Source of the DNA: a virus
Lineage: Duplodnaviria; Caudoviricetes
Reading direction: 5' to 3' (one strand)
DNA length: 53,674 bases
Virus record (IMG/VR): IMGVR_UViG_3300037296_000160
Span: 1 to 53,674 of that record
Below the pieces are notes generated by a model. That model ran no database searches. It was not told the DNA's origin and saw only the letters and a list, made by a program, of their open reading frames with translations. Shown here piece after piece: positions 6,401 to 20,044 of this stretch (positions are counted from its first letter, which is position 1; each line of letters opens with the position of its first letter). A program made the translations under genes and the position numbers.

Positions 6401-6482
6401 GAACAACACGGGCGGTATCAACATCAATGACAAGATCGCAGACCGCGTCTTGGGAAAGGTGGCCCCGACCGTCTTTGATTAA
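3..6482 (+). CDS. C-terminal part of giant DarB-like polyvalent virion protein (strawberry-notch-type SF2 helicase, HExxH zincin-like domain, PLxRFG domain); continues from 44941 across the junction
   Basis: Motifs LLDESH (Walker B), SSAT, SGSTGFSLHA...QMLGRIHRTGQ (helicase C-domain), LDHEIVH (~3130) and YFPLARFGNY (~4400). In frame with the 44941 ORF through the overlap. Confidence 0.9.
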   Translation, partial: EGDRYLFTTYSQLQAVKGKEPERRPLLRALAGNAMFLLDESHEAGGQADTGWKDPDAVADRATFMREVLAMAKGAVFSSATYAKNPTVMSLYAKTDLSLAVEDISELGAAIALGGVPLQQAIANMLVEAGQYARRERSFEGVSMALTPLDINMTVATDTIARVADIFDADMLVMQAARKDAIENLKADGHAETKDGAVGVESGDSTNFAAVIHNVVNQMLLALKVDAVADRAIQAWKDGEKPIMAVYNTNGALLDAMIEGEGLSVGDKVDLPFKVILHNYIERLRRITVKDGKNGEAIRIDLTDAQLGSRAATMLKKLHEDVDNTDFGKLSASPLDLLHDKMRAAGMKTGEITGRSRVIEDGILTARDASSAAKKRTMAAYNKGGAGGYDALIINQSGSTGFSLHATALKGNDGKQRLMIVMQADPNIDVFMQMLGRIHRTGQILLPKYEIAVTPLAAEKRGSAILMRKMASLNANTTASKDSAVTLDNVTDFLNEVGDKVMRRYLAENFDLAVRLDLDLDKENIAQKATGRMSILPPVDAERIYSEIEELYAAEIDELNRLGENPLEAQVYDWQAKEISSAVIEAGKGSSSPFDADTVMKYLSVRRLTKPYSWDEVQDRLAEAQDGITGESRVEAAAAHVGEVGTAYMHTLQDKVDALRNTWEKTRAEDDKADNTEGSTKTIKAKKAYDAAVKRFDEARTSIENTLSRLSDFEPGTAVMIGTSRGHMYGVILDLDASAMTNNPLALSKVAIRIAVADAARELRVPLSRFTGTDALTIEPAPADMVQFNFDSGQSSAREVRAVATGNLINAFARFGTGRIAFYTDENGATQTGVVMPATFDVRAELEREPVRFKTPEQVTAFLNGGDRIVDTGDGALTIKRTGYENYELTASTRAKVYYVGKAVTDITGQWTKRGSAPAKITVTSAADLNKLLAVYTDMIQPHFVTHSYKGEAREITGDALPDIKAPAGAAEKRAQPRNLRKRRDNLRRSLFMRLADTGMADEVSLQLARKIVSRTGTPLEGFQKGSVIAVAMDSANPESALDHEIVHAMRDSKLWGREGGLFGTADWRALVKQVRRQPQRLKAMQDLYPDLDSAAQMEEAVAELYADYRAGRDVDTAQGIMGRVQAMLETIGQVLRREGYRSGKEVMAAMANGTLAARARADLTTPPDGGSTPPEGAKERRKKSAGTATAESKAASIVNRAIDASMELAEKAKDAATKQSARALLSNMMDHGQTGTSILALVPGRPLLTELARNLPSARIYLLAKEAMDATRQHWAVDTDTVAKKWQWQAVRNKTANDQFMSLMHDATLAGIDPAEGGMDPATLERLVKEETGADPKADPAIVRAKIKGNFTDFVARYHDLPKPFQDLWAEVRDMYGRLADEWDKAIIDNHEHAVERAIHKMREENEREQVIVEAGTLSKKDKAKAIERLRNEIADAEKRARESGKRRMGELRAAFESNRTSKPYFPLARFGNYYVTLKDEAGKVVSFSKFKGQKEQERFAAEHEGKFEVITGVMQQDGNRLDKSVDAGFVAEVADILSRDGVDDDVMDAIWQRYLETMPDMSLRKSRIHRKGTEGYTQDALRSFGNHMFHGAHQLARLKHQNDMQDALDDMADQAKASKDPNRAMHVVNEISRRHEFTMSPKNAGWTATASSLAFVWYLGATPAAAMVNLTQTTIIGIPMMRARYKKSSTGDVTRELGSALRDFGQGKGYADKSSKLTAKEREAMDAGYDRGLMDKTQASDIAGIAETGIEYNPIRSQAMAVIGFMYHHAERANREVTFLASYRLGIKEGLPHASAIDRAADATWDIHFDYQNNSRPRFMQDDFPKVLLTFRAFQVNMIYRMVRDTHQSLHGATPELRTEARRQLIGITGQMALHAGITGTWGYGMVMMIVGLFFSAAGADDEPEQALKKLMVGSTDPTTALGHARRFIGSMALYGVPGTLTGTALSDRIGMPNLWFRDPYKDMEGREAYTNYLQQLVGPVPGLAEKGFVGMSQLMDGKVERGIESMVPKFVRDGMRSVRYLSEGVTTYSNEDPVVEHVSPYQALVQALGLTPAQIAERYDTNNAIKRLEGRIEDARSDTLGTIRKAVRDTGALTPDAVDALHRYNAKYPEWIIDRGTIKRSLSGARRASQNNTGGININDKIADRVLGKVAPTVFD

Positions 6483-6574
6483 GCGGAACTGCAAACTTCA
6501 TTAGGCGTTATTGTTTGATAATCAGCACGACTGCTGATAATGAGAGCGTAGGCCGTGAAACCGCCCGTCCGACT

Positions 6575-6630
6575 GGCCCCGCCCGACTAAGCAGACTGCT
6601 CGCTGCTGAAATCTGGCGGGGCCTTTTTCT
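6575..6630 (+). terminator. Long hairpin with U-tract between the giant gene and the lysis cassette (terminator or attenuator)
   Basis: GGCCCCGCC (6575-83) pairs with GGCGGGGCC (6615-23), with an inner AGCAG/CTGCT stem, followed by TTTTTCT. Confidence 0.65.
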
Positions 6631-6656
6631 GAACAGCCCGACGCAGGAGCGCGGCG

Positions 6657-7022
6657 ATGGACCTGAAAGCCCAATGCCCCATGTATGACCGCGTTTCTTT
6701 TTTCCTACTTTCGCTGACAGCCGCGTTGGGGCTGGGCGACAAGCCGCCAAACTACTGGTTCGCCGTGATCGGTGCGACAATCTACGTTGCCACCACGGGC
6801 GATGACCGCATTGCCGCCCGCGTCCTTAAAGCCTTGCTTTCGCTTATGTTCGGCTTTGCCTTCACGCCTTGGACCATGGAGCGCACTGGCTACGACGAGC
6901 CGTTCGTTATCGCAATCGTCATCGTGTTTTCTCTCATTCTCATTGACCTCGCAAAGCGGTTGCTGGGCGATAAGGGCGTGGTCGAAACCATTATTGGTTT
7001 TTATTTTGGGAAAAAGAAATGA
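6657..7022 (+). CDS. Putative holin
   Basis: 121 aa, several hydrophobic helices, basic C-terminus (GKKK), AGGAG Shine-Dalgarno (SD), first gene of the lysis cassette. Confidence 0.6.
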   Translation: MDLKAQCPMYDRVSFFLLSLTAALGLGDKPPNYWFAVIGATIYVATTGDDRIAARVLKALLSLMFGFAFTPWTMERTGYDEPFVIAIVIVFSLILIDLAKRLLGDKGVVETIIGFYFGKKK

Positions 7023-7558
7023 TCCACACATTGAAAGGCCACAACCACAGCATCGTGATACTCGCGCTTCTTATCCTTATGGCGCAGACGACGGAGTGGG
7101 GGCGCAGCATCTACATCACGCACGTCGCCGACCCCATCTGGATCAGAACCGAGGTCGAGATAATCCCTCAAGCAATGGGCCAGCCACCAAAGATCGAGTA
7201 TTCCAAGGAGACAGACCGGCCCGTTCGCGCCGTCTGGACAGCCATTGTGCGCGGCCACGACCACACGCGCTTGTCTACGCGCCGGGGCGATGGAAACTAC
7301 TTTACCAGCGCCGGGGAAGCGTCCCCCATTTGGTCATGGGACGCCTTCTTTGACGACGGTATCCGCAACGCGCCCCGCGTCCCCATGGAGCCGTTCATGG
7401 TGTGCGTCTGGTATCGCGCGTCTGACCTGCGCGTCGATCTAACCCGCGACACCCCCGAATACTGCTCAAGCGTCTTTGACCCCCGCGTCAACCGCCTTGT
7501 CGGCAGCACGGAAAACCCCATCAAAACTCAAGCCCTCAAAGAAGGATTGCTGCCATGA
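7019..7558 (+). CDS. Membrane-anchored hypothetical protein in the lysis cassette
   Basis: N-terminal hydrophobic segment (SIVILALLILMA), two Cys in the soluble part, ATGA coupling to both neighbours. Confidence 0.7.
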   Translation: MIHTLKGHNHSIVILALLILMAQTTEWGRSIYITHVADPIWIRTEVEIIPQAMGQPPKIEYSKETDRPVRAVWTAIVRGHDHTRLSTRRGDGNYFTSAGEASPIWSWDAFFDDGIRNAPRVPMEPFMVCVWYRASDLRVDLTRDTPEYCSSVFDPRVNRLVGSTENPIKTQALKEGLLP

Positions 7559-8574
7559 CCCTATCGCCAAACGGGCGCATTGTCGCCGCTGCGCGCGCAA
7601 CCGTCGGGATTAAGGAAATCCCCGGCATGTTGCATAACCCCAAGATCATCGAAATGGCGAAGGCCGTCGGGCATGGCTGGGTGAAGGATGACGAAACCCC
7701 GTGGTGCGCGTCCTACGTCGGCTGGGTGTTGCTGACATGCGGCATCAAAGGCACGGGCAAGCTAAACGCGCGGTCCTACCTCGATTGGGGCGAAGTCGTA
7801 GAGATTGCCGACGCCAAGCCCGGTGACGTCTGCATCCTCACGCGGGGCGATCCGAATAGCTGGACCGGCCACGTCTTCTTTGTCACCAAGATCGACAACA
7901 AGCGCATCTACGGCATTGGCGGCAACCAGAGCAACGCCGTCACCGAAGCCAGCTACTTGCGCAATAGCAAGGTTCTAGGCGTTCGCCGCGCCCCCGGTGG
8001 CTTGAAGGCTGGCCCTATCGCATCCAAGCCACTGGCCGAGTTGGGCGGCTACAACGAACGCGCATTGGTCATGCTTTATCAGTCCAAGCTGAAAGAAAAG
8101 GGCTACCCGCTGGGCGAGGTAGACGGTCTGTTTGGCAAGCTGACCCGCGACGCCGTCATGGCCTATCAGGCTGACAACGGCCTGACCGTGACCGGCGCAA
8201 TCGACGGCACGACCGCCGACCTGCTGCTGAACGGCAACAGCAAGCGCCTACTGCCTGATGACCGCGCGCAGATCACCGCCGACGAACTGGAAGCGCGTGG
8301 GTCTGACACGATCCGCGAAGCCAACGGCGGCAAAACCACGTCCATCGTCACGCTTATCGGCAGCGTCTTTAGCTACCTGTTCGCCGCCAAGGACGACATT
8401 GCCAGCGTTGTGGCGACCGCAGAGGGCACCGCCGCGAAAGCGGGCGATCTAGCCCCCTACGCCATCCCCCTGTTCCTTGGCGCGGTCGCGCTTGTCCTGC
8501 TGCTGCGCCATTTCAGCCGCATCAAGGAAGCCCGCGTAGACGACGCGCGCACCGGCAAGAACATCGGGCGCTGA
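7555..8574 (+). CDS. Endolysin: TIGR02594/NlpC-P60-like peptidase, peptidoglycan-binding domain and C-terminal TM helices
   Basis: DDETPWCASYVGW (catalytic Cys), GHVFF, GGNQSN; PG-binding motif VDGLFGKLTRDAVMAYQ..GL.VTG.ID; hydrophobic C-terminus. Confidence 0.85.
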   Translation: MTLSPNGRIVAAARATVGIKEIPGMLHNPKIIEMAKAVGHGWVKDDETPWCASYVGWVLLTCGIKGTGKLNARSYLDWGEVVEIADAKPGDVCILTRGDPNSWTGHVFFVTKIDNKRIYGIGGNQSNAVTEASYLRNSKVLGVRRAPGGLKAGPIASKPLAELGGYNERALVMLYQSKLKEKGYPLGEVDGLFGKLTRDAVMAYQADNGLTVTGAIDGTTADLLLNGNSKRLLPDDRAQITADELEARGSDTIREANGGKTTSIVTLIGSVFSYLFAAKDDIASVVATAEGTAAKAGDLAPYAIPLFLGAVALVLLLRHFSRIKEARVDDARTGKNIGR

Positions 8575-8575
8575 T

Positions 8576-8797
8576 ATGGGCGCGATTGGTTTCACGGTCT
8601 GGGCCTTTGTGAGCGGCGCTGCGGCGGCGTTCGCGTGGTTCCTTGGCCGTGGCAAGAGCGCGCGCCGCGACGAGCGCGCCAAGCTGCAAAAGAAGGACGC
8701 CGACCATGCAGGCACGATTGAACGCCGCGTTGATGCTGTTCGCAGCGATCCTGACCGGATGCAGCGCGATCACGGAAAAGCGGGCTACCGCGACTGA
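8576..8797 (+). CDS. Putative inner-membrane spanin (Rz-like)
   Basis: N-terminal TM helix and charged helical tail; follows the endolysin and overlaps a lipoprotein gene. Confidence 0.6.
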   Translation: MGAIGFTVWAFVSGAAAAFAWFLGRGKSARRDERAKLQKKDADHAGTIERRVDAVRSDPDRMQRDHGKAGYRD

Positions 8798-8945
8798 TAC
8801 CGAAACGGCCCTGTGCATTGCATGGGGCCGTTCTTTGCCGACGCGGTCACACCGCGACACCCAACAGACGCGCGACGAAATCACGGCCAGCTACGCCAAT
8901 TTTGAAGCCGCGTGTCCCGAACAAAACGAGCTGTTACCAAAATGA
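8706..8945 (+). CDS. Putative outer-membrane lipoprotein spanin (Rz1-like)
   Basis: From ATG 8706: MQARLNAALMLFAAILTG-C lipobox and two further Cys; out-of-frame overlap with the i-spanin. Confidence 0.65.
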   Translation: MQARLNAALMLFAAILTGCSAITEKRATATDTETALCIAWGRSLPTRSHRDTQQTRDEITASYANFEAACPEQNELLPK

Positions 8946-10273
8946 GCACACAATTCCCCCGCCGCCCTGATATCTGCATCTTTCATTCACCTTGTAACGA
9001 CGGATTTGCCGCCGCGTGGGCCGTCTGGTCGCGCTTTGGCGACTATCCCGAATACATGCCCATGCAGCACGGCCAACGGCCCCTGCCAGACCCGCTGGAA
9101 TACCGCGATCAACATATCCTGTTCGTAGACTTTAGCCTGCCCCTGTCAGACCTCGAAGTCATGGCAAAGGATGCGGCCAGTATCACGATCCTCGATCACC
9201 ACGCGACCGCAGCCGCCGCGCTTGTCAGCTTGCCCCCCATGGACAAAGACCTTGGCGGGATCAGCAACAACTATGATCCGAGTATCCACCCCGAATGGGC
9301 CACGAACGTGCGCGTGGGCTTTGACATGGAACATTCTGGCGCGGCGCTGGCGTGGCAGTATATCCAACCCGGCAAACCCATCCCGCGCTTGATCCACCAC
9401 GTCCAAGGCCGCGATCTATGGCTCAAGGATGACGACATGCACGATATGGTTCATGCCGTCGTGGGCCTGCGCCTATCACGCCACCAGAACCTATCTGACC
9501 AATTTGAAGCCTTTTCCCGACTTAGCCACGAAATAGAGGCCAGCCCTGACGCCATTGTGGCCGAGGCTGAAATCCTGGCCGATCAGCGGGCCATGTTTGT
9601 GGCGCAGATCGCAGAGACAGCCATCGACGTGAACATCGCAGGGCACGTCGTTCCCGTGGTCAGCGCGCCCTATGCGCTTGTATCCGACGTCTGCCATGCC
9701 TTGCTCAAGGAAGACCCCAAAGCGCCCTTTGCCGCCGCCGTGGTCCACGCCTATGGCAACACCAACATATCCATGCGGTCGGACAATGACCGGCTGGACG
9801 TGGGCTGCATCGCGGCCACCTATGGCGGGGGCGGGCATCGCAATGCGGCCGGTTTTCAAGCGCCGTGGTTCCTGTGGCCCATGCAGATCGAGAACATGGC
9901 CGCATCGCTGGAAGACAAGCCTTTGAAGCCGGTGAAGCTGTCCAATCTTGCGATACAAATTGCTGACATGGTCGAGGTAATCGACATGGTTATGGTGCGA
10001 GTGTTCCCCGAACTGACATGCCGCGCCCGCATCGACGTAGAGGACCGGCCCGCAACGCCATCGGGCTACAAGACGGCAAAGGCCACCGTGTCAATCGAGA
10101 CAAGCATCGACGGCAAACACATAGAAACCTTTACCGAGGCGTATCGCGTCGTTCGCCAAAAAGACGGCACCATCCCAAGGGATCACGTTGAGGCAATCAT
10201 ATCACTCGCCTGCAATATGGGCCACGGCCAGATATGCCCGTCAACGGGCCTGCAAGATATGGTGGACGCCTAA
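8942..10273 (+). CDS. DHH/DHHA1-family phosphoesterase with C-terminal extension
   Basis: Motifs HSPCNDGFAAAW, FVDFS, ILDHH, ISMRS and GGGGHRNAAG; ATG 8942 overlaps the upstream stop. Confidence 0.88.
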   Translation: MSTQFPRRPDICIFHSPCNDGFAAAWAVWSRFGDYPEYMPMQHGQRPLPDPLEYRDQHILFVDFSLPLSDLEVMAKDAASITILDHHATAAAALVSLPPMDKDLGGISNNYDPSIHPEWATNVRVGFDMEHSGAALAWQYIQPGKPIPRLIHHVQGRDLWLKDDDMHDMVHAVVGLRLSRHQNLSDQFEAFSRLSHEIEASPDAIVAEAEILADQRAMFVAQIAETAIDVNIAGHVVPVVSAPYALVSDVCHALLKEDPKAPFAAAVVHAYGNTNISMRSDNDRLDVGCIAATYGGGGHRNAAGFQAPWFLWPMQIENMAASLEDKPLKPVKLSNLAIQIADMVEVIDMVMVRVFPELTCRARIDVEDRPATPSGYKTAKATVSIETSIDGKHIETFTEAYRVVRQKDGTIPRDHVEAIISLACNMGHGQICPSTGLQDMVDA

Positions 10274-10620
10274 TGGCGCGGCACCAACTGCCTGACCGTC
10301 GGCCAGCCGTTACCGTGCTGGCCACATGGCAGACCGAAGGGGGAGGTCATAAAATCCACCTGACGGCAGGCTATGACCTCGAAGGCCGCTTGCGCGAAGT
10401 CTTCTATGCCGACGGCCAGAAAACCGGCGCTGGGCTGCGCGACGTCGTGCAAGATGCTTGTGTTCTGGTGTCGCTGCTTTTGCAGCATGACGTGCCGCTC
10501 GATCAGATCGCCAAGAGCATGGCAAGCGAGACGATCTATTTTAAGACGGTGCCGACAACGATCATCGGCACCATCGTTCGGGCGCTGGGCGATTTGGATA
10601 TCGTGCAGCCCCCCGCATAA
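10273..10620 (+). CDS. Stand-alone TSCPD-like domain (resembles the class II ribonucleotide reductase C-terminal domain)
   Basis: R..LPDRR...KIHLTAG....GRLREVF...K.G...LVSLLLQHDVPL pattern; TAATG coupling. Confidence 0.7.
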   Translation: MARHQLPDRRPAVTVLATWQTEGGGHKIHLTAGYDLEGRLREVFYADGQKTGAGLRDVVQDACVLVSLLLQHDVPLDQIAKSMASETIYFKTVPTTIIGTIVRALGDLDIVQPPA

Positions 10621-10635
10621 TAGGATTTATGTAAA

Positions 10636-10803
10636 CTAGCGCGAATGGTAGGTGTCAGACCGGGCCTTGAGAAAAGCCCCGGTCGCACGGCCAGCCGCAT
10701 CCCCGGCAATGTTTGGCAACAGCCAGACGGCCAGCAAGACAGCCACCGCAACAACACCCCAGAACTGTGCGCCGCGCTTGGGCGCACGATCAGGATTTTC
10801 CAT
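10636..10803 (-). CDS. Small single-TM membrane protein at the end of the partition operon
   Basis: MENPDRAPKRGAQFWGVVAVAVLLAVWLLP...; GGAGG SD (CCTCC at 10810-14); overlaps the end of the RHH gene. Confidence 0.55.
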   Translation of the reverse strand: MENPDRAPKRGAQFWGVVAVAVLLAVWLLPNIAGDAAGRATGAFLKARSDTYHSR

Positions 10804-11029
10804 ACTTGGCCTCCAACAGATCAATCGCCTCGATCAACAGCGCGCGCACGTTCTTACCCTCTAATTCCAAAGCAAGCCGCCCGTAGCGTTTGACAATATC
10901 CGAAGGCACCTTGGCCCCCAGATGCTTTGCGTGGGCGTCGTCGGCTACCGTGCGATCTTGTGACGTATTGTCGGGCATTGTGGCCGTGCTGCGTGTCGGG
11001 GCTGCGCCCAAGGCGGGTTTCTTCGCCAT
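10790..11029 (-). CDS. Small ParG-like ribbon-helix-helix centromere-binding protein (type Ib partition)
   Basis: 79 aa directly after parA; flexible N-terminus, then LGAKVPSDIVKRYGRLALE..KNVRALLIEAIDLL (strand-helix-helix pattern). Confidence 0.75.
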   Translation of the reverse strand: MAKKPALGAAPTRSTATMPDNTSQDRTVADDAHAKHLGAKVPSDIVKRYGRLALELEGKNVRALLIEAIDLLEAKYGKS

Positions 11030-11034
11030 CGTTG

Positions 11035-11685
11035 TTACTCCTGTGTGGGCTGGGCGACGCCAGCAAAGGTAAAGATTGCGTCGGCCAGCGCGCGCGCCTC
11101 GGTATCGACGCTGGCAAAGCCCGTCTCACTGGCGCAGCCGCCCCGGTTATGGGCTTGGCGCACAGACGGCATTTCACGCATGGCAGGCAATAGCATGGCG
11201 CAGCCAGTGGTGCGCAGGTAGCGTTGGGCTTCTTCCAACTCACTGCCCCCGGTGCGGGCGCGGCAGAACGCATAAGCGATCCGGTCAGCAGGCACACCCT
11301 TGTCGATCAACTCATAGGCCGCGAGAACCTGCGGGCGCAGGTCGTCCTCACTCAAGCCCGTCGGCATCACCACCGTATGCGCCGCCTTGGCGACGTCTAA
11401 GCTGCGCTTGTCCATGAACGCGGGGGTGTCGATAACCAAAAGGTCGCAAGCGCCGACGTAGGCCAGCGCAGCTTGCGGGGTGCGGCATTTCTCTACGGCG
11501 ATATCGGGGTCTAACTCTGCCGCGTCCCGCCGCTGTTTCCACTCGACCGACGTGCCCTGACCGGGATCGAGGTCGCACAAGCGGACAGACAGGCCGCGCT
11601 TGGCCCCTTCAACCGCCAGCAAGCGGGCTATGGTCGATTTTCCGACGCCGCCTTTTTGGCCGATTGTTGCGATAATCGTAGTCAT
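11035..11685 (-). CDS. parA: ParA partition ATPase (short, type Ib)
   Basis: Deviant Walker A GQKGGVGKST, DLDPGQG and LVIDTP; no N-terminal HTH. Confidence 0.93.
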   Translation of the reverse strand: MTTIIATIGQKGGVGKSTIARLLAVEGAKRGLSVRLCDLDPGQGTSVEWKQRRDAAELDPDIAVEKCRTPQAALAYVGACDLLVIDTPAFMDKRSLDVAKAAHTVVMPTGLSEDDLRPQVLAAYELIDKGVPADRIAYAFCRARTGGSELEEAQRYLRTTGCAMLLPAMREMPSVRQAHNRGGCASETGFASVDTEARALADAIFTFAGVAQPTQE

Positions 11686-11722
11686 GCGGCACCCTATGTT
11701 GGTTTGTTCCATCTAACCAATA

Positions 11723-11745
11723 GTGGTTTCGTGGTCGCGTGGTCA
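11723..11745 (-). promoter_or_regulatory. 8-bp-period ACCAC array over the putative parA promoter (candidate parS/operator)
   Basis: GTGGT at 11723, 11731 and 11739; the minus strand reads TTGACC-ACGCG-ACCACGAA-ACCAC (-35-like hexamer). Confidence 0.6.
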
Positions 11746-12591
11746 AGACAATGCTTGTGCCGTTCCCTCGATCATCTGGCTAGGATCATCCCAATGCAGC
11801 AGGTATCCGGTGACGATCCGTTTTTCGACAACAGGCTCGACCTCCACTTGAAACGGGGCCAGCGCGTTGACGTGTTTGACCGCAGGGGCAATAGCGTAGC
11901 GCCAAAGATCATTGGACGACGCCAGCTTGCCGCGCGGCACCCCCAGAACGATATCGCGCATCTTGGCGGGTTTGAACAATTCGGACCTGACGTGCCGCAT
12001 ATTGATCCGCCGCGCCGTGACCTCGAACATGCGGTAAGCATACTTGCTGGGAAGCTGGGCCATTAGGTCCACATCGAGCATCCCCCAAAAGGTGCTGCGA
12101 TACATGACGTCAAAGTAATCGCGATCATAACTATACCGCAAAAAGCCAAAGGGCACGTCGGGCGCAAGACTGTCAGCCTCGTCTGGCCTGACGCTGCCGC
12201 CATGCTTCACGCTGCCAAGTTTCTGAACAGACACGAAGCCTCCGCGCGTATCGCGGACCTGCATGACCGTCTTTTGTAATCGCTTAAGGCTTTTGAATAC
12301 CCGGTCGTTATCGCTGCGCCCGCGTCGCAAGGCACTCATGGGAATCATGAAGTCCGTTAGGCCGCGTTGCACCCTGTCCCGCTGTTCCAGCGCCCCGCGC
12401 AAAAGGCGGTTCTCAATATCGAGGTCTGCCTTCGTCAGCTTATCCAAGCCGTCGATGCTAAAGTCGATCAATTCACCGGGCTTAGCCAAGTTACCCGGCG
12501 GCGTATTCGCCAGCAGAGCGGGTATCATAGACGCCTGCCGTTCTTCACGATCCTGCTTCATCGCGCCAGAGCGAGTTTTGGGGGGGGTCAT
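11743..12591 (-). CDS. Plasmid replication initiator, Rep_3 (winged-helix) family; alternative start ATG 12561
   Basis: SLKRLQKT..., LPSKYAYRMFE..., LGVP.GK.....DL.R.AI.PAV..VN pattern typical of Rep_3 initiators; adjacent iterons. Confidence 0.82.
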   Translation of the reverse strand: MTPPKTRSGAMKQDREERQASMIPALLANTPPGNLAKPGELIDFSIDGLDKLTKADLDIENRLLRGALEQRDRVQRGLTDFMIPMSALRRGRSDNDRVFKSLKRLQKTVMQVRDTRGGFVSVQKLGSVKHGGSVRPDEADSLAPDVPFGFLRYSYDRDYFDVMYRSTFWGMLDVDLMAQLPSKYAYRMFEVTARRINMRHVRSELFKPAKMRDIVLGVPRGKLASSNDLWRYAIAPAVKHVNALAPFQVEVEPVVEKRIVTGYLLHWDDPSQMIEGTAQALS

Positions 12592-12743
12592 ATTGGGCCT
12601 GCTCGCCGTTAAATGTTACTGAGACGCTATCAGCGTGGGCAAAACCACGCAAGCGAAAGGAGAAATTAGCGAAAGCGCCAATTATTCTTGGCGCCCTTGT
12701 AGAACCAGATCAAAAAAAAGCGACTTTGCTTATTTTATCCACA

Positions 12744-12826
12744 CCCCCCCAATAACTCGCTAGAACCCCCCCAAAAACTCGCCCAAACCCCCCCAATAAC
12801 TCGCTGAACCCCCCCCAAAAACTCGC
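12744..12826. repeat. Iteron array: four 22-bp-period repeats CCCCCCCAA(T/A)AACTCGC
   Basis: AA(T/A)AACTCGC begins at 12751, 12773, 12795 and 12817; a shorter inverted copy lies at 12571-12587. Confidence 0.9.
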
Positions 12827-12900
12827 CCAGATCAGCTTTTTTTTATGTATTTTCAATAAGATAACTTTTGGGAATATAGAATATAAGAATATAAGAAACG
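12827..12900. other. AT-rich DNA-unwinding element of the plasmid-type origin
   Basis: Strongly AT-rich tract next to the iterons in an otherwise GC-rich genome. Confidence 0.7.
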
Positions 12901-13037
12901 CCAGAAGGTCACAAAAGGCGCAATGAGGCATGGATCAACGATAAGGCGAACACGCGAAGGAACGGTTCAACTTGAAATGAAACCGAAACCACGCTTAGAA
13001 CGTGTCTAATTGACGCCAGCGGCCACGGGAGTTTGCC

Positions 13038-13259
13038 TTGAGCAAGACAGATACACTGATAGCGCCAGAAGGCGCGAAGGTCAGCGCCCGCAAGGCACCG
13101 ATGCAAACTGTAATGGCGGGGGCAGCTACAGCACGGCCATCACAGCGCAAGGCCATGTTGGACGTGCTTAGAGCAGTGACGCTTAACGACGACCCGCAAA
13201 AGCGGCGAGAATTGTTGTCTGGTCTTTCAGCAAAGCTAATTCCGCATCGTCCAAACTAG
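13038..13259 (+). CDS. Small hypothetical protein
   Basis: GGGAG SD before the TTG start; 73 aa; 3' end overlaps the convergent repressor-like gene. Confidence 0.45.
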   Translation: MSKTDTLIAPEGAKVSARKAPMQTVMAGAATARPSQRKAMLDVLRAVTLNDDPQKRRELLSGLSAKLIPHRPN

Positions 13260-13617
13260 ACGCTAAGTCGAAGATTTCGATCATGTCGCCAATGACCTTA
13301 CGGTCGCCCAGCATTTCCATCCAATGCTGCAATGCGATTGCTTCATCATCGGGCATATCACTGACCGCCTGACAGACCCATCGCCGCGCTTTTGCGCCTT
13401 CCGATTGGTCCGCATCGTCAACGAGGTCGGCCACGCGCAGCCCAAGGCGATCCATCAAAGCAATGCCAAGATTGAATGAGAACCGTGACGTATCGCCGCG
13501 CAGGAAGCGATAAACAGCGTCGGGCGGGCCTTCCACCAGATCGCGTCTGTTAATTTTCTTGTCTGCCGTGCCGTCCAAAACGTGTTGGCGCAATCGGTCT
13601 GAATAATTTTCCGTCAC
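13183..13617 (-). CDS. Putative XRE/HTH repressor (CI-like, no S24 peptidase domain seen)
   Basis: INRRDLVEG..DAVYRFLRGD...FSFNLGIALMDRLGLRVADL (HTH-like); GTG 13617 with AGGAG SD; divergent from terS. Confidence 0.6.
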   Translation of the reverse strand: MTENYSDRLRQHVLDGTADKKINRRDLVEGPPDAVYRFLRGDTSRFSFNLGIALMDRLGLRVADLVDDADQSEGAKARRWVCQAVSDMPDDEAIALQHWMEMLGDRKVIGDMIEIFDLASSLDDAELALLKDQTTILAAFAGRR

Positions 13618-13635
13618 TGGAAACTCCTGTCTCAC

Positions 13636-13847
13636 AGATTTTCATATGTGCAAATAATTGGCCGTATTAAAGTCTTTAAGCGTATATACCTAACTTTAGG
13701 CGGAAATATGGCCGCATTGGTATAGGTTTTCGGCACAAACGTATAATTTAGGCGGCACTGTCAGCAGATGTGCAGATAGTTGATCCTTGCTTTTTACCAT
13801 AATTTGCAGATATGCAGATTGTCGGTAGTCGGCAGGATATTCGACAC
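13636..13847. promoter_or_regulatory. Divergent control region with paired TGCA(G/A)AT octamer repeats
   Basis: AT-rich; motif at 13649, 13763/13771 and 13805/13813; TATAAT at 13742. Confidence 0.55.
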
Positions 13848-14405
13848 ATGGCAAAATCAGCACTCACGCCGAAGCGCAAACGCTTTTGCGAGTTATACGT
13901 CCTCCACGGCAACGCCACCAAAGCGGCCATCGAGGCGGGATACTCTGAGAAAACGGCGCGATCTATCGCAGCCGAAATGAGAGCCATTCCCGAAGTACAG
14001 GCGCACATCGACCTACTCATAGCCGAACAGAGCCAACGCACCGGGATCGACGCCGACAGCGTCCTAAAAGAGATTGCCAAGATCGCCTTTGCGAACATGG
14101 GCGACTTTATGAAGTTTGACGAAGCCGGGAACCTGTCAGGTCTGTCCGTGGACGGCCTGTCAGACGACCAGCTTGCCGCGATCACCGACTTTTCAACCGA
14201 CGTTGTGATTGAGTTTCCAGACGGCAAGGACGGCGATGCGGTCTATGTCCGCAAGACCCGCCTCAAGCTGGGCAACAAGGGCACCGCCCTGCGCGATCTG
14301 GGCAACCACCTTGGCCTATTCAAGAAGGCCGAGGGCGACGACATGGCCAAGCTGTTGCGCGACCTTGTGTCTGATAAAGCCCTGCCCCCCGGTTCGTTGA
14401 ACTGA
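13848..14405 (+). CDS. terS: Terminase small subunit
   Basis: LTPKRKRFCELY...NATKAAIEAGYSEKTA motif; directly upstream of terL. Confidence 0.93.
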   Translation: MAKSALTPKRKRFCELYVLHGNATKAAIEAGYSEKTARSIAAEMRAIPEVQAHIDLLIAEQSQRTGIDADSVLKEIAKIAFANMGDFMKFDEAGNLSGLSVDGLSDDQLAAITDFSTDVVIEFPDGKDGDAVYVRKTRLKLGNKGTALRDLGNHLGLFKKAEGDDMAKLLRDLVSDKALPPGSLN

Positions 14406-16105
14406 TGGATGCGCAAAGGGCCATTGCACATACCACCCGACGCGAGACGCCAAGGGCGCGCGACTTGCGGCGCACCCGCATGGCCCCTGCCCGCGCCATG
14501 AGTAAGCACGACCACCTCCCTTGGCCCGAAAACGCCGTAGACCCCGATTTTGTGCCCACCACCGGGCAGGAATTGCTGACCTGCCTGCGCAGCAAGCGGT
14601 GGCGTCTGTATTCGGGCAGGCTTTACAAGATCATCGTCAAAGACAACGAAGACCCCGATGACGAGGGCGTCGTCCTGCCGTTCGCCCCGTGGGCCGAGCA
14701 GACGCAGTATTTCCTAGAGCCAGCCTTGCGCCGTCTGTTGCTCAAGGCCCGCCAGCTTGGCTTTACGACGGCCATCGCCATCGAAATGCTCGACCACGCG
14801 CTTTGGGAAAGCGATCAGCGGTGCGCCATTGTCGCGCAGTCCAATGAGGCGATGGAGGCTATCTTTCGGGATAAGATCATCTTCGCCTACGACAACCTGC
14901 CCCCAATCGTTCGCGCCATGGTGCCCTACATCAAGCGCACCGAACGCATGATCCAGTTTGAGAACAACTCCAACATTCGCGTTGCCCTGTCCTTCCGGTC
15001 TGGAACGCTGAACCGCCTGCACGTTTCCGAGTTTGGCAAGATCAGCGCCAAGACCCCGAAGCGCGCCAAAGAGATCGTTTCGGGATCGTTCCCCGCAGTC
15101 GTGCCGTCTGGACAGGCAACGATTGAAAGCACCGCCGAGGGCAAGGGCGGCGAGTTTCACAAGATATCAGAGAGAGCGCGCAAAAGGGCCGATGACCCGC
15201 GCCCGCTGGCCGCGAAAGAGTGGAAGTTTATGTTTTTCGCATGGTGGCAGGCAAAGACCAACGAAGTGGACCCCACGGGCGTCATCATCAGCGATGAAGA
15301 CCATGAATACTTCAACGGCCTAGAGGAAGCCTTGGGCATCCTACTGCCGAACCGCAAGCGCGCTTGGTATGTCCTGACCCGCGATGACGAACTTGGCGGC
15401 GATGCGGCGATGATGTGGGCAGAGCATCCATCCACCCCGCAAGAGTCTTGGCAGAAGGATCGCAAAGGCCACTACTACGCCAAACAGATGCTAAGTGCCC
15501 GCGCCAACAAGCACGTCGGCCTGTTTCCCCCGGTCAAAGGCGTCCCGTGCATGGGCGTCTGGGATATCGGCCACACCGACGGCACCGGCCTATTCTTGTT
15601 CCAAGAGGTTCTAGGGCACCATCGCTTTGTCGCCTACATCGAGGGCTGGGAAGAACCCTATGACTACTACACGCGGCGCATGGTGCAGACCGGCCTCGTG
15701 TTGGGCACCCAATACCTGCCGCATGACGCTGACAACCACATCATGCTCAAGGATATCACCACGACGCCGCGCACGATGCTGCAAGAACTCTTGCCAACCG
15801 TCCCGTTCGTCACGGTCCAGCGCATCCCCGAAAAGCCCCTGCAACATGCCCTCGTGCGCAAGCACTTTGAATTGATCCGCTGGCACCAGCCGGGGGAGGG
15901 CATGGAGGACGCCCTCGAACACATCGACAACTATCAGAAGTCTTGGAACACGGTCACGGCCCAATTCAACGACACCCCCCTCAAAAATGAAGCAACCGAG
16001 TGTGCCGACGCGCTGGGCATCTACGCGCAGGTCGTTGAGGCCGGTGCATTTGCGATCACCAGCCGCCGCCGCCCACGCCGCCCCAAAGGAGGCAAAACCC
16101 TATGA
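14405..16105 (+). CDS. terL: Terminase large subunit (start could be 14498)
   Basis: LKARQLGFTT (Walker A), LHVSEFG (Walker B), ESTAEG, WDIG nuclease motif and LPHDA. Confidence 0.95.
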   Translation: MDAQRAIAHTTRRETPRARDLRRTRMAPARAMSKHDHLPWPENAVDPDFVPTTGQELLTCLRSKRWRLYSGRLYKIIVKDNEDPDDEGVVLPFAPWAEQTQYFLEPALRRLLLKARQLGFTTAIAIEMLDHALWESDQRCAIVAQSNEAMEAIFRDKIIFAYDNLPPIVRAMVPYIKRTERMIQFENNSNIRVALSFRSGTLNRLHVSEFGKISAKTPKRAKEIVSGSFPAVVPSGQATIESTAEGKGGEFHKISERARKRADDPRPLAAKEWKFMFFAWWQAKTNEVDPTGVIISDEDHEYFNGLEEALGILLPNRKRAWYVLTRDDELGGDAAMMWAEHPSTPQESWQKDRKGHYYAKQMLSARANKHVGLFPPVKGVPCMGVWDIGHTDGTGLFLFQEVLGHHRFVAYIEGWEEPYDYYTRRMVQTGLVLGTQYLPHDADNHIMLKDITTTPRTMLQELLPTVPFVTVQRIPEKPLQHALVRKHFELIRWHQPGEGMEDALEHIDNYQKSWNTVTAQFNDTPLKNEATECADALGIYAQVVEAGAFAITSRRRPRRPKGGKTL

Positions 16106-16536
16106 GTTATGGAATTGATCTGGAACTGGCCCACGCCGAGTTTGACCGAGGCGACCTGCGCGTCACGATGACATGGCTGTTCGAGGGGGCCGACCGGGCC
16201 ACCCCGCAGCCCTGCATGGTCCTGTCCCGCAGCGTCGAGCGCCAAGACCGCATGAAAATGCCCGTCGTCGTCACACTGGATAACGCTTGGCGTTGGGACC
16301 CCGCGACGTGGATCGAGTTTGACACCATGGAGCGCGCGTCTGGCTTTGCCGACAGCCTTGGTTTCGCGGTGAACAAACAGACCGTCATCACCATCGCGGG
16401 CCTGATTAACGACTACCTCGATGAATTGCTCACCATGCCCGTCGCCCCGCGCGTGAAGCAGACCAAACAAGCCGAAATGACGGTCATCAACCGCAACAGT
16501 GGCGAACAAATGGAAGTGGAGGTTTTGACGCGATGA
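16102..16536 (+). CDS. Hypothetical protein between terL and portal
   Basis: AGGAGG SD, ATGA coupling on both sides, coding-like codon bias. Confidence 0.8.
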   Translation: MSYGIDLELAHAEFDRGDLRVTMTWLFEGADRATPQPCMVLSRSVERQDRMKMPVVVTLDNAWRWDPATWIEFDTMERASGFADSLGFAVNKQTVITIAGLINDYLDELLTMPVAPRVKQTKQAEMTVINRNSGEQMEVEVLTR

Positions 16537-18782
16537 CAAGCATAGCTGTTGGGGAGAAGGTGCGCGAGTTTCGCAGCCTCTTGAACGAAACCCCCGAAGA
16601 TCAGGCGCAGCCGAACAAGCACGATAAGCACCTCGATACAGAGGAAGCCAAGGCGCTGCACCGCGAAATGATGGGCAGCTTTAGCCTTGAGCTGTCCCGG
16701 CAGGCCGCATCCCGCCGCCGCCGCGCCCGCGCAGAGGACTATTACCACGGCGTCCAGTTTACCGAGGCCGAGCGCCTTGAAATCGAGGGGCGCGGCCAGA
16801 CCGCGACCACGCTCAACATCATGGGGCCGTCGATTAACTGGATGCTGGGCACCGAGCGCCGCAACCGGGCTGACGGCAAGGTTCTGCCCCGCCGCAAGGA
16901 CGGACGCACCGACGCCGACTCCAAGACGCAGCTTTTGAAATACGTCGATGATTGCCACCACGCCGAAATGAAGAAATCGGCCGCATTTGCTGATGCGATC
17001 ATCACCGGGCTTGGCTGGCTGGAAACAGGCGTCCGCGATAGCGAAGCTGGCGGCGAACCTGTGTTCGTCGGCCACCCGGCGTGGCGGCAAATGGTCCATG
17101 ACAGCTTTGCCACAGAGTTGGATATGGGCGATGCGCGCTACATGTTCCGCGCCAAGTGGACGGACGTGAACATTGCGACGGCCATGTTCCCAGACCGCGC
17201 GCCAACGATCCGCGCCGCCGCGCTGCGCGACAACGGCATGTCGGGCGACGGCGGCATTGACGGCTGGGGCGATGACGCCATGGACAGCGTCGAGCAATTC
17301 GCCCTCGATACCCACGACTTTGGCTATGAGATTGCCGAGGCAATGCGCCCGCGTGTGCGGCTTATCGAGGCATGGACCCGCCGCCCGATGATGACGCCCT
17401 GCATGATCGGCGGCATGTTCGACGGCGAGATTTTCGACCCGCACAGCCACGGGCACGTCAACGAAGTCATCATGGGCAACGCGCGCGTCAAAGAGAAGCT
17501 GCGCAACCGGATGCAGGTTCACATTATGACGTCGGGCGGGCTGTTGCGGTCCCAGAACTCGCCCTATCGCCACAACAAGTTTCCATTCACCCCCGTCTGG
17601 GGCAACCGGCGCGCGTCTGACAACATGCCTTACGGCGTGGCTGATACGATGATCGACCTGCAAGACGACATCAACAAGCGCCAGATCAAAGCCACCTACA
17701 TTCTGAACACCAACAAGGTCGTGGCCTACGAGGGCAGCGTGTCCGACGTGGACGAGTTTCTTGAGGAAGTGCCGCGCCCTGACGGCGTGATCTGGATTAA
17801 GGAAGGCAAGCAAAAGCCTGATTTTAATGCAGATAAGGAGCTTGGGACGTCGCACCTTAACTCAATGTCTATGTCGATCGACATGGTTCAGCAGCTATCG
17901 GGCATCACTGACGAAAGCATGGGGCGCACCACCAACGCCACGTCAGGCCGCGCGATCAAGGCGCGTCAGGAGCAAGGGGCCATGACCACGGCCCACTACT
18001 ACGACAACTTTAGGTATGCCCTGCAAGTCCATGGCGAGAAACAGCTTTGCGTCTGTGAACAGTTTATCGACAAGGAAAAGCAATTTCGCATCGCCACCCC
18101 GCGCGGGGGCTTTGACTTTAAGACGGTGAACGAACCGGGCAACGCCGCAACGAACATCACCGCGTTTAAGGCTGACTTTCAGATGGGCGAGGAAGATTGG
18201 AAGGCCAGCAACCGGCAGGCGTCCGCTGACAGCTTTATCCAGATCATGTCGCAGCTTGCCCCGGCCAACCCGCAAGTGCTGACCTCGATCCTCGATCTAT
18301 TGGTAGACATGCTGGACGTGCCCTACGCCGAGGAAATCGCCTCCCGCCTGCGCCTGCAATTCAACATTGAAGACCCAGACGCCGACCCCAATGACCCGTC
18401 GCCGCAAGCCGTCGAACAGCGGGCCAAGAAGGAAGCCGCCGCAGCCGCAGCAGGCGAGGCCATGGAGATGCAGAAGGCCGCACAGCAAGCCGAAACCGAC
18501 AAGGCCACCGCCAGCGCCCGCGAAGCGCGCGCCAAGGCCGCACGGTCGGAAATCGAGGCGCAAAAGGAACTGTTGTCGATGGACCGTATCGCGTTCGACA
18601 ACATCAGCGTCATGCAAGCGCAGCGCGGCACCGCCGCGACCGCCGACGCCATGATCGAGGACGCCATCGCGCGTGTGAACGCCATGGTGCAGCCGCAGAC
18701 AGGGCAACCCCCTGCCCCTGCCCCCGATATGCCGCCCCCAGAGGCAGGCATGGACCCCGCAAGCCAACTTATCCCCGCATAA
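16533..18782 (+). CDS. Portal protein (podovirus type)
   Basis: 749 aa; DYYHGVQF..., DARYMFRAKW, FPFTPVWG.R....PYG...MIDLQDDINKR, SGRAIKARQEQG; coiled-coil C-terminus. Confidence 0.92.
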   Translation: MTSIAVGEKVREFRSLLNETPEDQAQPNKHDKHLDTEEAKALHREMMGSFSLELSRQAASRRRRARAEDYYHGVQFTEAERLEIEGRGQTATTLNIMGPSINWMLGTERRNRADGKVLPRRKDGRTDADSKTQLLKYVDDCHHAEMKKSAAFADAIITGLGWLETGVRDSEAGGEPVFVGHPAWRQMVHDSFATELDMGDARYMFRAKWTDVNIATAMFPDRAPTIRAAALRDNGMSGDGGIDGWGDDAMDSVEQFALDTHDFGYEIAEAMRPRVRLIEAWTRRPMMTPCMIGGMFDGEIFDPHSHGHVNEVIMGNARVKEKLRNRMQVHIMTSGGLLRSQNSPYRHNKFPFTPVWGNRRASDNMPYGVADTMIDLQDDINKRQIKATYILNTNKVVAYEGSVSDVDEFLEEVPRPDGVIWIKEGKQKPDFNADKELGTSHLNSMSMSIDMVQQLSGITDESMGRTTNATSGRAIKARQEQGAMTTAHYYDNFRYALQVHGEKQLCVCEQFIDKEKQFRIATPRGGFDFKTVNEPGNAATNITAFKADFQMGEEDWKASNRQASADSFIQIMSQLAPANPQVLTSILDLLVDMLDVPYAEEIASRLRLQFNIEDPDADPNDPSPQAVEQRAKKEAAAAAAGEAMEMQKAAQQAETDKATASAREARAKAARSEIEAQKELLSMDRIAFDNISVMQAQRGTAATADAMIEDAIARVNAMVQPQTGQPPAPAPDMPPPEAGMDPASQLIPA

Positions 18783-18803
18783 TCAGCAAAGAGGAAACAC
18801 CCC

Positions 18804-19652
18804 ATGGCAAACCCGCAGACACACTACGACGATCCGCCCATCAACGCCGAAGATGACGCCGAAATCGTCCTGACCGACGATGACCGCCGCCAGCTTACGC
18901 CAGCGGATATCGAAGCCCTGTCCGCTGTTGTGGATGCAGAGGTCATAGACGAGCAGCCCGCACCCGCGCCTGCCCCTGTGATCGATCAGCAGCCCGCCCC
19001 GGCCCCGGCACCGGCCACGGACTATAGCGCGGATATCGCTGCGCAGGATGCAGCTATGCGCGCGCTACGCGCAAGCTGGGACGACGGCGACGTGTCGGTT
19101 GATGACTACAACCGCCAGCAGGACGAATTGCAGGCCGCGCGCGATGAACTAATCACCGCCCGCGCTTTGCAGGAGGCTAACCCTGCCCCGGCCCAGCCCG
19201 AAGACAACGGCGGCGACCGGCAGGAAGACCCCGCCTTTGCCCTCGATGCGCAGAGATATGCGACCGCCTACCCCGAACTGTTCTCTGACGCGCACTTTAC
19301 CGCGTTCAACGCACTGTTCGAGCAAAACGACGCGCGGGCATCGAGCGCCAACCTCACCACCACGCAGCTACTTGAGAAGACGCACCGCGAGTATGCCGCA
19401 CTGGCCGAGGCACAGCATCGGCCATTGCAGGTATCCCTACCGGGCACCGGAGGCGTTGGTGGCCGCAAGGACGAAGTGCCGCCCAGCATTGCCGACGTGC
19501 CCGCGTCTGGTCTGGACGCGCACCAAGACCGCTTTTCGACCTTGGCAGCCCAGATCGACACGATGGACAACCCTGACGATATCGAGGCCATCTTGGCGAA
19601 GTTGCCCCCTGACCAACGCGATGCGTTCGCGTCATTTGGCGACGACGGATGA
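18804..19652 (+). CDS. Putative scaffolding protein
   Basis: Acidic, Pro/Ala-rich, helical; follows the portal; C-terminal helix (IEAILAKLPPDQRDAF). Confidence 0.65.
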   Translation: MANPQTHYDDPPINAEDDAEIVLTDDDRRQLTPADIEALSAVVDAEVIDEQPAPAPAPVIDQQPAPAPAPATDYSADIAAQDAAMRALRASWDDGDVSVDDYNRQQDELQAARDELITARALQEANPAPAQPEDNGGDRQEDPAFALDAQRYATAYPELFSDAHFTAFNALFEQNDARASSANLTTTQLLEKTHREYAALAEAQHRPLQVSLPGTGGVGGRKDEVPPSIADVPASGLDAHQDRFSTLAAQIDTMDNPDDIEAILAKLPPDQRDAFASFGDDG

Positions 19653-20044
19653 AGGTAAAACTCACCACCTTAACCGTCACTTTGAGCCGCGCAGCCGTGT
19701 TGCAGTTGCGCGGCTGCAACCTTTGCTACCTCGATAAGCAGGACGACGGCGGCACCGTTTTTGCGGTCAATCCGCAGCCCGACGTCGTCGTCAAGCATCA
19801 CCGCAAAGACCCCAAGACGGGCCTGCCCGAAACGGAAGGTGTGATTTTGGACGGCGTCACCATCGCCATTCAGATCGGTGACGCGATCACCACCAGCCAC
19901 GGCACTGGCCTAATCCGCGTCAAGCGGGGCACGTCTGCCCGCCCGACGTTCAAAGTCAGCGCGCCAGAGCATGACCGCATTACCGTCGTGCGCCGGGGGC
20001 AACCCGTCGGTGGACGCGCCAAAGAACTGGAGAACCAGCTATGA
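19649..20044 (+). CDS. Hypothetical beta-rich protein, possibly two tandem CsrA/RsmA-like domains
   Basis: Two ~50-aa halves with CsrA-like strand patterns: LTVTLSRAAVLQL...TVFAVNPQPDVVVKHHR and IAIQIGDAI...RPTFKVSAPEHDRITVVR. The CDS is likely real; the fold call is tentative. Confidence 0.45.
   Translation: MKVKLTTLTVTLSRAAVLQLRGCNLCYLDKQDDGGTVFAVNPQPDVVVKHHRKDPKTGLPETEGVILDGVTIAIQIGDAITTSHGTGLIRVKRGTSARPTFKVSAPEHDRITVVRRGQPVGGRAKELENQL

Follow-up and report, generated by a model that had tools for sequence, protein, structure and literature searches.

How a phage with no recognisable integrase might persist in its host is the question raised by the IMG/VR virus record IMGVR_UViG_3300037296_000160 (Duplodnaviria; Caudoviricetes), all 53,674 nucleotides of which were analysed and are referred to here as the window. 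At 10636-12900 the window carries a gene for a Rep_3-family replication initiator, a small ParA-type partition gene and an iteron-bearing origin. A preliminary description of this DNA had read it as a short-tailed phage with a plasmid replicon in place of an integrase, and our results support that core reading. The window probably represents a complete, temperate, Bcep22-like short-tailed phage that is maintained as a low-copy circular plasmid without integrating, and we put the probability of this at roughly 0.7. The evidence consists of homology and genome closure: the gene content, the anatomy of the origin, the fold of Rep, the circular closure, the lack of genes for an integrase or a replisome and the kinship of Rep and ParA with plasmid proteins were observed directly, and a plasmid life in the host is probable because a plasmid replication and partition module is present and an integrase is not. 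The phage-plasmid reading has good support but is unproven, since the sequence comes from a metagenome.

The initiator gene, rep, lies on the minus strand at 11743-12591 and encodes a protein of 282 amino acids (aa), or of 272 aa from an alternative start at 12561. By itself the protein passes only the Pfam family Rep3_C, and barely so (22.9 bits against a cut-off of 21.1). In an aligned set of the window Rep and 49 homologues, Rep3_C was found in 49 of the 50 sequences and Rep3_N in 43, and a profile of the set matched RepE of plasmid F and pi of plasmid R6K in the PDB (E ~5e-5). An AlphaFold model made from the single sequence was unusable (predicted local distance difference test [pLDDT], 34.6) and was remade with the alignment, which gave a pLDDT of 90.2 and a predicted template-modelling (TM) score of 0.86. 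In Foldseek, this model matched iteron-DNA-bound RepE54 (E 1.7e-9; TM score of 0.75 to 0.81 by target) and pi (E 5.6e-6). The family, profile and fold matches therefore bear out the Rep_3 initiator seen in the preliminary description and identify it as an iteron initiator with two winged-helix domains, with the fold of the class that includes RepE (F), pi (R6K) and RepA (pPS10).

Rep is a rare protein: a word-index search across 5.8 billion proteins returned, besides Rep itself, two relatives with 63% and 57% identity, the latter (P0003) encoded on a 26.5-kb contig, and an exhaustive HMMER search gave 266 proteins at E ≤ 1e-3, one of them at E ≤ 1e-30. Searches of viral contigs with Rep alone, with the capsid protein alone or with an alignment of close Rep sequences found nothing; the same close-Rep alignment, searched against metagenome contigs, found one 1,049-bp contig (L084) with a 64%-identical Rep. 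Among plasmid records there were 162 matches, all at 37% identity or less and mostly from Rhodobacterales and Sphingomonadales (Pseudosulfitobacter, 47; Paracoccus, 34; Sphingobium, 21; and others), against none among 50,697 phage records. This distribution argues against an alternative in which the virus is virulent or pseudolysogenic, Rep and the iterons form a purely lytic origin, and ParA serves, for example, to position replicating phage DNA. Phage lambda uses its O protein on iterons of its own and offers an analogy. We consider this alternative unlikely and take it up again below with the regulatory genes.

A search of 185,579 species genomes identified 89 stretches encoding Rep relatives. 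Of the 89, 80 were kept; most of these lie on small contigs from Rhodobacterales and other Alphaproteobacteria, with a ParA relative also present in 43, a resolvase relative in 24 and a phage structural gene within 10 kb in none of the 80. A Rep tree of 75 rows was built, from which 13 of the 80 loci had been dropped because of a match under 200 aa long or with a stop in it. The window Rep and three metagenome proteins grouped in a clade of their own (support 100/100, stem 1.48), apart from the remaining 71 rows, nearly all of which come from alphaproteobacterial contigs. The preliminary description had suggested a phylogeny of Rep against Rhodobacterales replicon types; in the present tree the clade lies outside all sampled lineages, and therefore neither a described compatibility group nor a host can be read from the tree, so that an attempted host assignment by this route failed. 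By sequence, the Rep lineage is represented only in metagenomes (four sequences) and appears new relative to known elements.

The origin lies directly upstream of rep. Four direct iterons with a ACCCCCCCAAWAACTCGC core occupy 12743-12826 on the plus strand at an exact spacing of 22 bp, and a single inverted iteron at 12571-12588 covers the first rep codons, 10 bp upstream of the second ATG. Counted as direct copies at 12746-12826 and an inverted copy at 12571-12585, they give five matches where 0.26 is expected, and none of 100 shuffled sequences contained at least five. A DnaA box, TTATCCACA, at 12735-12743 (plus strand) is the sole exact match in the window; it abuts the first iteron and is preceded by an A-tract/GATC element at 12709-12721. 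Boxes with one mismatch were not enriched (8 found and 5 expected). After the fourth iteron comes an AT-rich stretch of 69 bp at 12832-12900, with 21.7% guanine plus cytosine (GC), which consists of a T-tract and short tandem AT-rich repeats and contains the lowest-GC 60-bp window of the whole genome unit. The iterons and the AT-rich element had both been noticed in the preliminary description, and both hold up under these counts. By position and composition, 12832-12900 is a candidate DNA-unwinding element and the inverted iteron a candidate operator for Rep autorepression; the same iteron sequence stands at the same place over the rep start on contig L084. No CtrA-type TTAA-N7-TTAA sites were found, and a promoter and terminator scan of 10400-14000 gave no more hits than chance.

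Published Rep_3 ("RepB-type") replicons of Paracoccus are described with three to five iterons of about 19 bp separated by spacers of 2 to 3 bp, a single inverted partial iteron beside the rep start codon and, in some, a TTATCCACA box (PMC3832669). The layout of the window origin, as far as it can be judged from sequence, fits this pattern: the common elements are iterons that recur every 21-22 bp upstream of rep, the inverted partial iteron at its start codon, a DnaA box and an AT-rich region.

Downstream of rep on the minus strand, parA begins after 30 bp and is followed by a 79-aa and then a 55-aa open reading frame (ORF). The parA gene (11035-11712) encodes a small ParA/Soj-type ATPase of 216 aa from its likely start at 11685, or of 225 aa otherwise. 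The protein from the likely start begins just before a deviant Walker A motif (KGGVGKS); family matches begin at residues 11 to 14, and an N-terminal DNA-binding domain is lacking. It matches Pfam CbiA, ParA and MipZ as well as phrog_164 and NF041546. Its best matches are encoded on Rhodobacterales plasmids (Pacificitalea pDY25-F, 48.5% identity; Paracoccus, 44.9%), and the best phage matches, at about 45%, are those of the Rhodobacter capsulatus phages RcSaxon, RcCronus and RcRhea.

The preliminary description had paired ParA with a ribbon-helix-helix (RHH) partner. The ParA call is borne out by these matches, whereas the partner call stays below threshold. The 79-aa protein (10790-11029, minus strand), a candidate ParG-like centromere-binding protein with a C-terminal RHH fold, scored 16.8 bits against Pfam Antitox_RHH, under the cut-off of 27.2, and had no match among PDB sequences. 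Its nearest clusters in the Atlas, a comparison of language-model features, were ParG-family and RHH at 0.93, which we take as a lead only. On pDY25-F, the 48.5%-identical ParA gene is followed by an 89-aa ORF whose C-terminal end resembles that of the 79-aa protein, with a blastp alignment of 34% over 71 aa that is not significant (E 2.2). A complex prediction with two ParA and two 79-aa chains scored 0.19 where the mark was 0.34 and counts neither way. ParA and the 79-aa protein are thus a candidate type Ib (ParF/ParG-like) partition pair.

Neither an integrase nor a phage replisome accompanies this module. Six-frame scans of the window for PF00589, PF07508, PF03796, PF00476, PF00136, PF09250 and PF13155 (tyrosine integrase, large-serine Recombinase domain, DnaB, PolA, PolB, Prim-Pol and Toprim primase, respectively) were negative, and control genomes were positive, in agreement with the preliminary description, which had recognised no tyrosine or large serine integrase, DNA polymerase, primase or replicative helicase. 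The window also contains no Bcep22/JC1-type large serine integrase, no cI and no lambdoid replication module. The stated absences in the earlier gene inventory therefore stand, but two present functions had been overlooked: a phage-encoded DnaN, the DNA polymerase III beta sliding clamp, identified by family matches at 24647-25957 on the plus strand, and a Strawberry-notch-type helicase domain, which sits inside a giant virion protein.

The resolvase that had been reported elsewhere in the genome was confirmed at 27545-28381 on the plus strand. This small serine recombinase of 278 aa (PF00239, E 9e-44; resolvase/invertase catalytic domain at residues 40-174) is a candidate multimer resolvase. 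As the only recombinase of the genome, it could be imagined to act as the integrase of an integrating temperate phage in which Rep and ParA are passengers or are used only after excision. In NCBIfam its catalytic domain is most similar to that of the excision recombinase XisF, which would suit such a role, and JC1, a Bcep22-like phage, integrates into rimO with a serine recombinase (PMC9144972). However, neither the Recombinase domain nor the zinc ribbon of large serine integrases is present; in length and domain composition the protein is like resolvases and invertases, and its identity to resolvases that adjoin Rep relatives on plasmid-like contigs reaches 52%. Together with an assembly that closes on itself without host DNA, these features make integration by this enzyme improbable.

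The closure of the genome was examined at its ends. The record is one contig of 53,674 bp, the last 426 bp of which (53249-53674) are a second copy of positions 1-426 with four mismatches, at 62, 170, 191 and 299; this is an assembly overlap that closes the circle, and the true unit is therefore 53,248 bp. The probable source of the record is a salt-lake metagenome run, and an independent assembly of the same run was used to check the junction. A 43,128-bp contig of that assembly, with a uniform depth of 53, covers window positions 1-20000 unbroken at its own positions 15471-35470 and runs from the end copy into window position 1, which indicates that the genome closes on itself. The closed form is a circle or a concatemer, without host flanks. 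The contig departs from the window at exactly the four repeat positions, where it carries the letters of the end copy; two variants thus coexist in the sample or in the assembly. In the source database the record is listed as linear with a CheckV completeness of 94%, presumably because the end repeat is imperfect, and the practical point is that a record listed in this way is actually a closed genome. The independent contig breaks at about 27658, in the resolvase gene, and at about 37779, in the tail fibre gene, for which strain variation is one possibility; an invertible segment between about 27.66 and 37.78 kb was considered and dropped, as self-BLAST gave no long inverted repeats.

The same assembly bears on whether the replicon belongs to this genome at all. 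If a plasmid fragment had been misjoined into a phage contig, it would be understandable that Rep, ParA, the resolvase and DnaN are missing from all phage relatives examined and that the GC content, 60.8% for the genome, falls to 0.52 across 12-14 kb. Yet the dip coincides with the origin and regulatory region itself, and the independent contig has phage genes on both sides of the module at its depth of 53. In a second sample, a runoff metagenome, short contigs of about 95% identity covered 25 of 30 bins of window positions 1-20000; a close relative therefore exists elsewhere. Two of these contigs lie on the flanks of the module, at 10355-10799 and 13953-14512, again at about 95% identity. No runoff contig covers rep (11340-12673), but at a cover of 2-7x and in fragments this sample says nothing on that point. 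A chimera is highly improbable on these grounds. A megablast search of 10500-14500 against phage and plasmid collections returned no match.

The phage part of the genome is full as regards virion, packaging and lysis functions, with terS (13812-14405), terL (14405-16105), a Bcep22-like portal gene (16533-18782; phrog_156, E 3.7e-142), a major capsid gene (29374-30612; phrog_334, E 4.9e-104), internal virion proteins, a tail fibre, a candidate holin and an endolysin, all on the plus strand. Tail tube, sheath and tape-measure families were not matched in any scan. The closest phages are Bcep22, BcepIL02, DC1, JC1 and PEp14 (Lessievirus and kin), to which the portal is 44-46%, TerL 43% and the capsid protein about 54% identical; the portal range of 44-46% also includes Erwinia phage Pavtok (alongside Erwinia PEp14), Pseudomonas phage Itty13 and Ralstonia phages. 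Capsid homologues in related records are annotated as N4-gp56 family, and the window capsid protein is 50-54% identical to those of relatives. A giant polyvalent virion protein and genes for a PAPS reductase and a GNAT acetyltransferase are likewise common to both. Bcep22-like phages are described as podoviruses (PMC5492332, PMC9144972), and a short-tailed virion is predicted here by the same kinship.

Where the window has rep and parA, Bcep22 has a large serine integrase, cI, RecET and an O-type initiator with a DnaC loader, so that the integrase and early genes of Bcep22 lie at the corresponding place. The replication-module proteins of Bcep22 were compared with IMG/VR loci only, and with the window by gene listing. 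Bcep22-like phages have no Rep_3 gene, according to the search of phage records. The interval between portal and capsid also differs, at about 10 kb in the window and three small genes in Bcep22. By these comparisons the window shares the Bcep22-like virion module and not the whole genome type.

Relatives of the portal were surveyed in two collections. In seven of 401 sampled Rhodobacterales genomes a portal relative was found at 40-44% identity; the four contigs examined of these seven share the virion module, and relatives of Rep, ParA, the resolvase and DnaN were found in none of the four. One of them (G270:C23), a whole contig of 53,300 bp and thus close in length to the window's unit, has no end repeat; beside this virion module it encodes DUF1376/YdaU, RecT, an MT-A70 methylase and a PAPS reductase. 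A similar prophage with YdaU and RecT occurs on a Roseicitreum megaplasmid. From IMG/VR, the best 80 of 339 stretches with a portal relative, all at 40-46% identity, were scanned within 10 kb of the portal. The window Rep (by tblastn and a Rep_3 hidden Markov model), ParA, resolvase and DnaN were found in none of the 80, and DUF1376 in 10; these loci are often fragments, and the result is therefore to be read as "not found" rather than "absent".

Between the origin and terS lies a minus-strand gene (13183-13635) for a 150-aa protein, divergent from the packaging and late genes. It had no match in Pfam, PHROG or NCBIfam; its nearest Atlas clusters, again as a lead only, were HTH_3/XRE at 0.92-0.93, and it is a candidate XRE/cI-type helix-turn-helix regulator and candidate lysogeny repressor. 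The low-GC region between this gene and terS contains paired GCAGAT motifs (GCAGATGTGCAGATA and GCAGATATGCAGATT) at 13755-13825, just upstream of and over the terS start. The motif 7-mer occurs three times there and 14 times genome-wide, and the pair may be an operator or a pac-related site.

These genes bring us back to a virulent or pseudolysogenic phage with a purely lytic Rep_3 origin. No other origin or initiator is recognisable, so lytic growth must depend on the one described here under either view; no repressor reaches the threshold of a curated family; the record is of metagenomic origin, with high and uniform depth; and several Bcep22-like phages make unstable lysogens (PMC5492332). 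On the other side, rep stands in one operon with parA and a small partner gene and a resolvase is present, all functions suited to stable inheritance and not to a burst. The XRE-like regulator occupies the classical position of a repressor, and the nearest phage ParA genes adjoin Rep genes in Rhodobacter phages that themselves resemble phage-plasmids. We therefore prefer maintenance as a plasmid and a temperate life style, which the operon and the regulator together suggest.

If the phage is indeed a plasmid in its host, replication could proceed as follows. Rep monomers would bind the four 22-bp-phased iterons and, together with host DnaA at the adjacent box, open the AT-rich stretch. As no helicase, primase or polymerase for replication is encoded, host DnaB, primase and Pol III would have to be recruited, with the beta-clamp supplied by the phage itself. 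By binding the inverted iteron that covers its own start, Rep would repress the operon of rep, parA and the 79-aa and 55-aa ORFs, and handcuffing of iterons may limit copy number, by analogy with F, R6K and pPS10. Type Ib partition would be the task of the small ParA together with its 79-aa partner, and the small serine resolvase may resolve plasmid multimers. The XRE-like protein beside the origin, divergent from terS, would repress the late genes during lysogeny. On induction the same origin, the sole recognisable one, would have to drive lytic replication, after which the terminase would package the DNA into a podovirus particle.

The host is probably alphaproteobacterial, and within that class probably a member of Rhodobacterales, as suggested by the affinities of Rep and ParA and the GC content. 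A further and rather doubtful extension is that the window is the first seen member of a halophilic alphaproteobacterial podovirus lineage that has no dedicated phage functions for replication or integration. In such a lineage one captured Rep_3 origin with a beta-clamp would serve both lysogeny and lysis, the switch would act on copy-number control through relieved Rep autorepression or handcuffing and not through a separate lytic origin, and the four-sequence Rep clade would be a replicon lineage specific to phage-plasmids.

Several points weigh against plasmid maintenance. Host, lysogen and virion are unobserved, the sequence being a metagenome one filed as a virus record, and the use of a single origin for both plasmid and lytic replication is an assumption. 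The combination of this Rep with this virion is a singleton among the portal relatives examined (80 from IMG/VR and 4 from Rhodobacterales), so there is no evolutionary persistence that would argue for use of the module in lysogeny. The calls of the repressor and of the RHH partner, both below threshold, are weak. When 10400-10830 and 12590-13200 were searched for centromere repeats by k-mer and repeat analysis, only the iterons and weak two-copy repeats emerged. Finally, some Bcep22-like phages are described as forming unstable lysogens only (PMC5492332), and others integrate into the chromosome in the manner of JC1 (PMC9144972).

The remaining genes were assigned as follows, on the plus strand unless stated. 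The giant polyvalent virion protein of 4929 aa is split by the arbitrary start of the record: the N-terminal 8308 nt, at 44941-53248, encode an inorganic pyrophosphatase domain (InPase), LPD5, LPD1 and the start of the helicase, and positions 1-6482 encode the C-terminal part with the helicase C-terminal domain and LPD39. The helicase region consists of AAA_34 and Helicase_C_4. In related records, homologues carry the annotation "PLxRFG domain protein" or "N-6 DNA methylase". The virion module at 30681-44834 holds structural proteins, the GNAT acetyltransferase and further virion proteins; it includes an internal virion protein (33211-35034) and a 1388-aa tail fibre (35031-39197), whose gene contains imperfect internal repeats of about 75-123 bp, 75-87% identical, at 35574-36686. 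The candidate holin (6657-7022) and the endolysin with CHAP and peptidoglycan-binding domains (7555-8574) follow the giant gene.

The accessory genes comprise a DHH phosphoesterase, a TSCPD protein, a DUF1064 nuclease and a PAPS-reductase-like protein. The first two, a 453-aa DHH/DHHA1 phosphoesterase and an overlapping TSCPD-domain protein at 8912-10620, directly adjoin the replicon module; this pair was not found in the 80 IMG/VR relatives examined. The interval from portal to capsid, at 18804-29202, holds about 10 kb of accessory genes and genes for DNA metabolism, including the DUF1064 nuclease, DUF7694, DnaN, DUF6283, the resolvase and the PAPS-reductase-like gene; in Bcep22 and the Rhodobacterales relatives the corresponding interval is about 1.5-3.6 kb. 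The 55-aa ORF, last of the rep-par operon (10636-10803, minus strand), overlaps the stop of the 79-aa gene by 14 nt and has a GGAGG ribosome-binding site and one predicted hydrophobic helix. Neither it nor a longer 83-aa frame at 10536-10787 had a family match; for the 55-aa product, a role as a small membrane protein, such as a toxin-like or exclusion peptide, is conceivable. Scans for transfer RNA genes and Rfam families were empty.

Phage-plasmids are increasingly seen as a bridge between the gene pools of phages and plasmids. Few of them are short-tailed, and those described from Alphaproteobacteria to date rely on repABC-type replicons; here the same Bcep22-like virion chassis is joined to a quite different plasmid backbone, with a Rep_3 origin, a small ParA and a resolvase. 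Such a combination is consistent with repeated exchange of the maintenance module (integrase, repABC or Rep_3) within a single phage type. The candidate replicon is compact, at about 2.3 kb, and might serve as a vector backbone for Rhodobacterales.

The preliminary description had taken the well-studied phage-plasmids to be myo- and siphoviruses of gammaproteobacteria and had placed the window in a possibly poorly described group. The first statement is out of date, given POI1126 (PMC5492332), the Roseobacter elements (PMC10090143, PMC4148982) and the survey by Pfeifer et al. (PMC7969092). The second holds in part: short-tailed and alphaproteobacterial phage-plasmids are sparsely described but not unknown. 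Pfeifer et al. place few phage-plasmids in Podoviridae and name the F116 community and crAssphage; their Table S4 lists 780 phage-plasmids with predicted families and may include further podoviral or alphaproteobacterial cases (PMC7969092). Our literature search, which did not extend to supplementary tables, found no account of a Rep_3 iteron replicon in a Bcep22-like phage.

The closest precedent is POI1126, a 60-kb Bcep22-like podovirus of Ochrobactrum intermedium with a 14.5-kb giant gene, whose extrachromosomal replication was demonstrated by restriction patterns of plasmid DNA (Jäckel et al. 2017, PMC5492332). In the near-identical plasmid record of O. intermedium LMG 3301, a 389-bp terminal repeat split the giant gene (PMC5492332). 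Both resemble the window in their Bcep22-like type, in a giant gene of about 14.5-14.9 kb and in an alphaproteobacterial host, which is probable for the window, and the LMG 3301 record also in the terminal repeat that splits this gene. A circular 59-kb plasmid of Brucella (Ochrobactrum) pseudintermedia in PLSDB, pOps-OCH-23_4 (NZ_CP137607.1), carries the same virion module, with identities to the window of 43% for the portal, 50% for the capsid protein and 34% for TerL, and of 20-53% for proteins overall. Elements of this group have repA/repB of the repABC type and a tyrosine recombinase, whereas the window has Rep_3, the small ParA with its 79-aa partner, the resolvase and the beta-clamp. The host order probably differs as well.

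Among Rhodobacterales, the 42-kb element of Tritonibacter mobilis A3R06, imaged as a siphovirus, and pGal_G40 of Phaeobacter gallaeciensis, with a repABC operon, carry plasmid replication and partition genes, as the window does, and do not integrate into the chromosome (PMC10090143, PMC4148982). The Rhodobacter capsulatus phage RcCronus (Cronusvirus; NC_042049.1) has RepA, a small ORF and ParA side by side at 24.7-27.4 kb, the ParA being about 44% identical to that of the window, and so also looks like a phage-plasmid. A blastp comparison of the window Rep with RcCronus RepA gave nothing significant, and the RcCronus record lists a T5 A1-like DNA transfer gene and a minor tail gene; we take this phage to be long-tailed. 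The Rep_3 plasmids of Paracoccus and other Rhodobacterales encode only distant relatives of Rep, within the 37% limit given above, and the window Rep stands in a phage genome. Since similar phage-plasmids are already known, the window is a new example and not a new kind. What is new, as read from its genes, is a Rep_3 iteron replicon where POI1126-type elements and the Roseobacter element pGal_G40 use repABC, together with a type Ib-like partition pair and a beta-clamp of its own.

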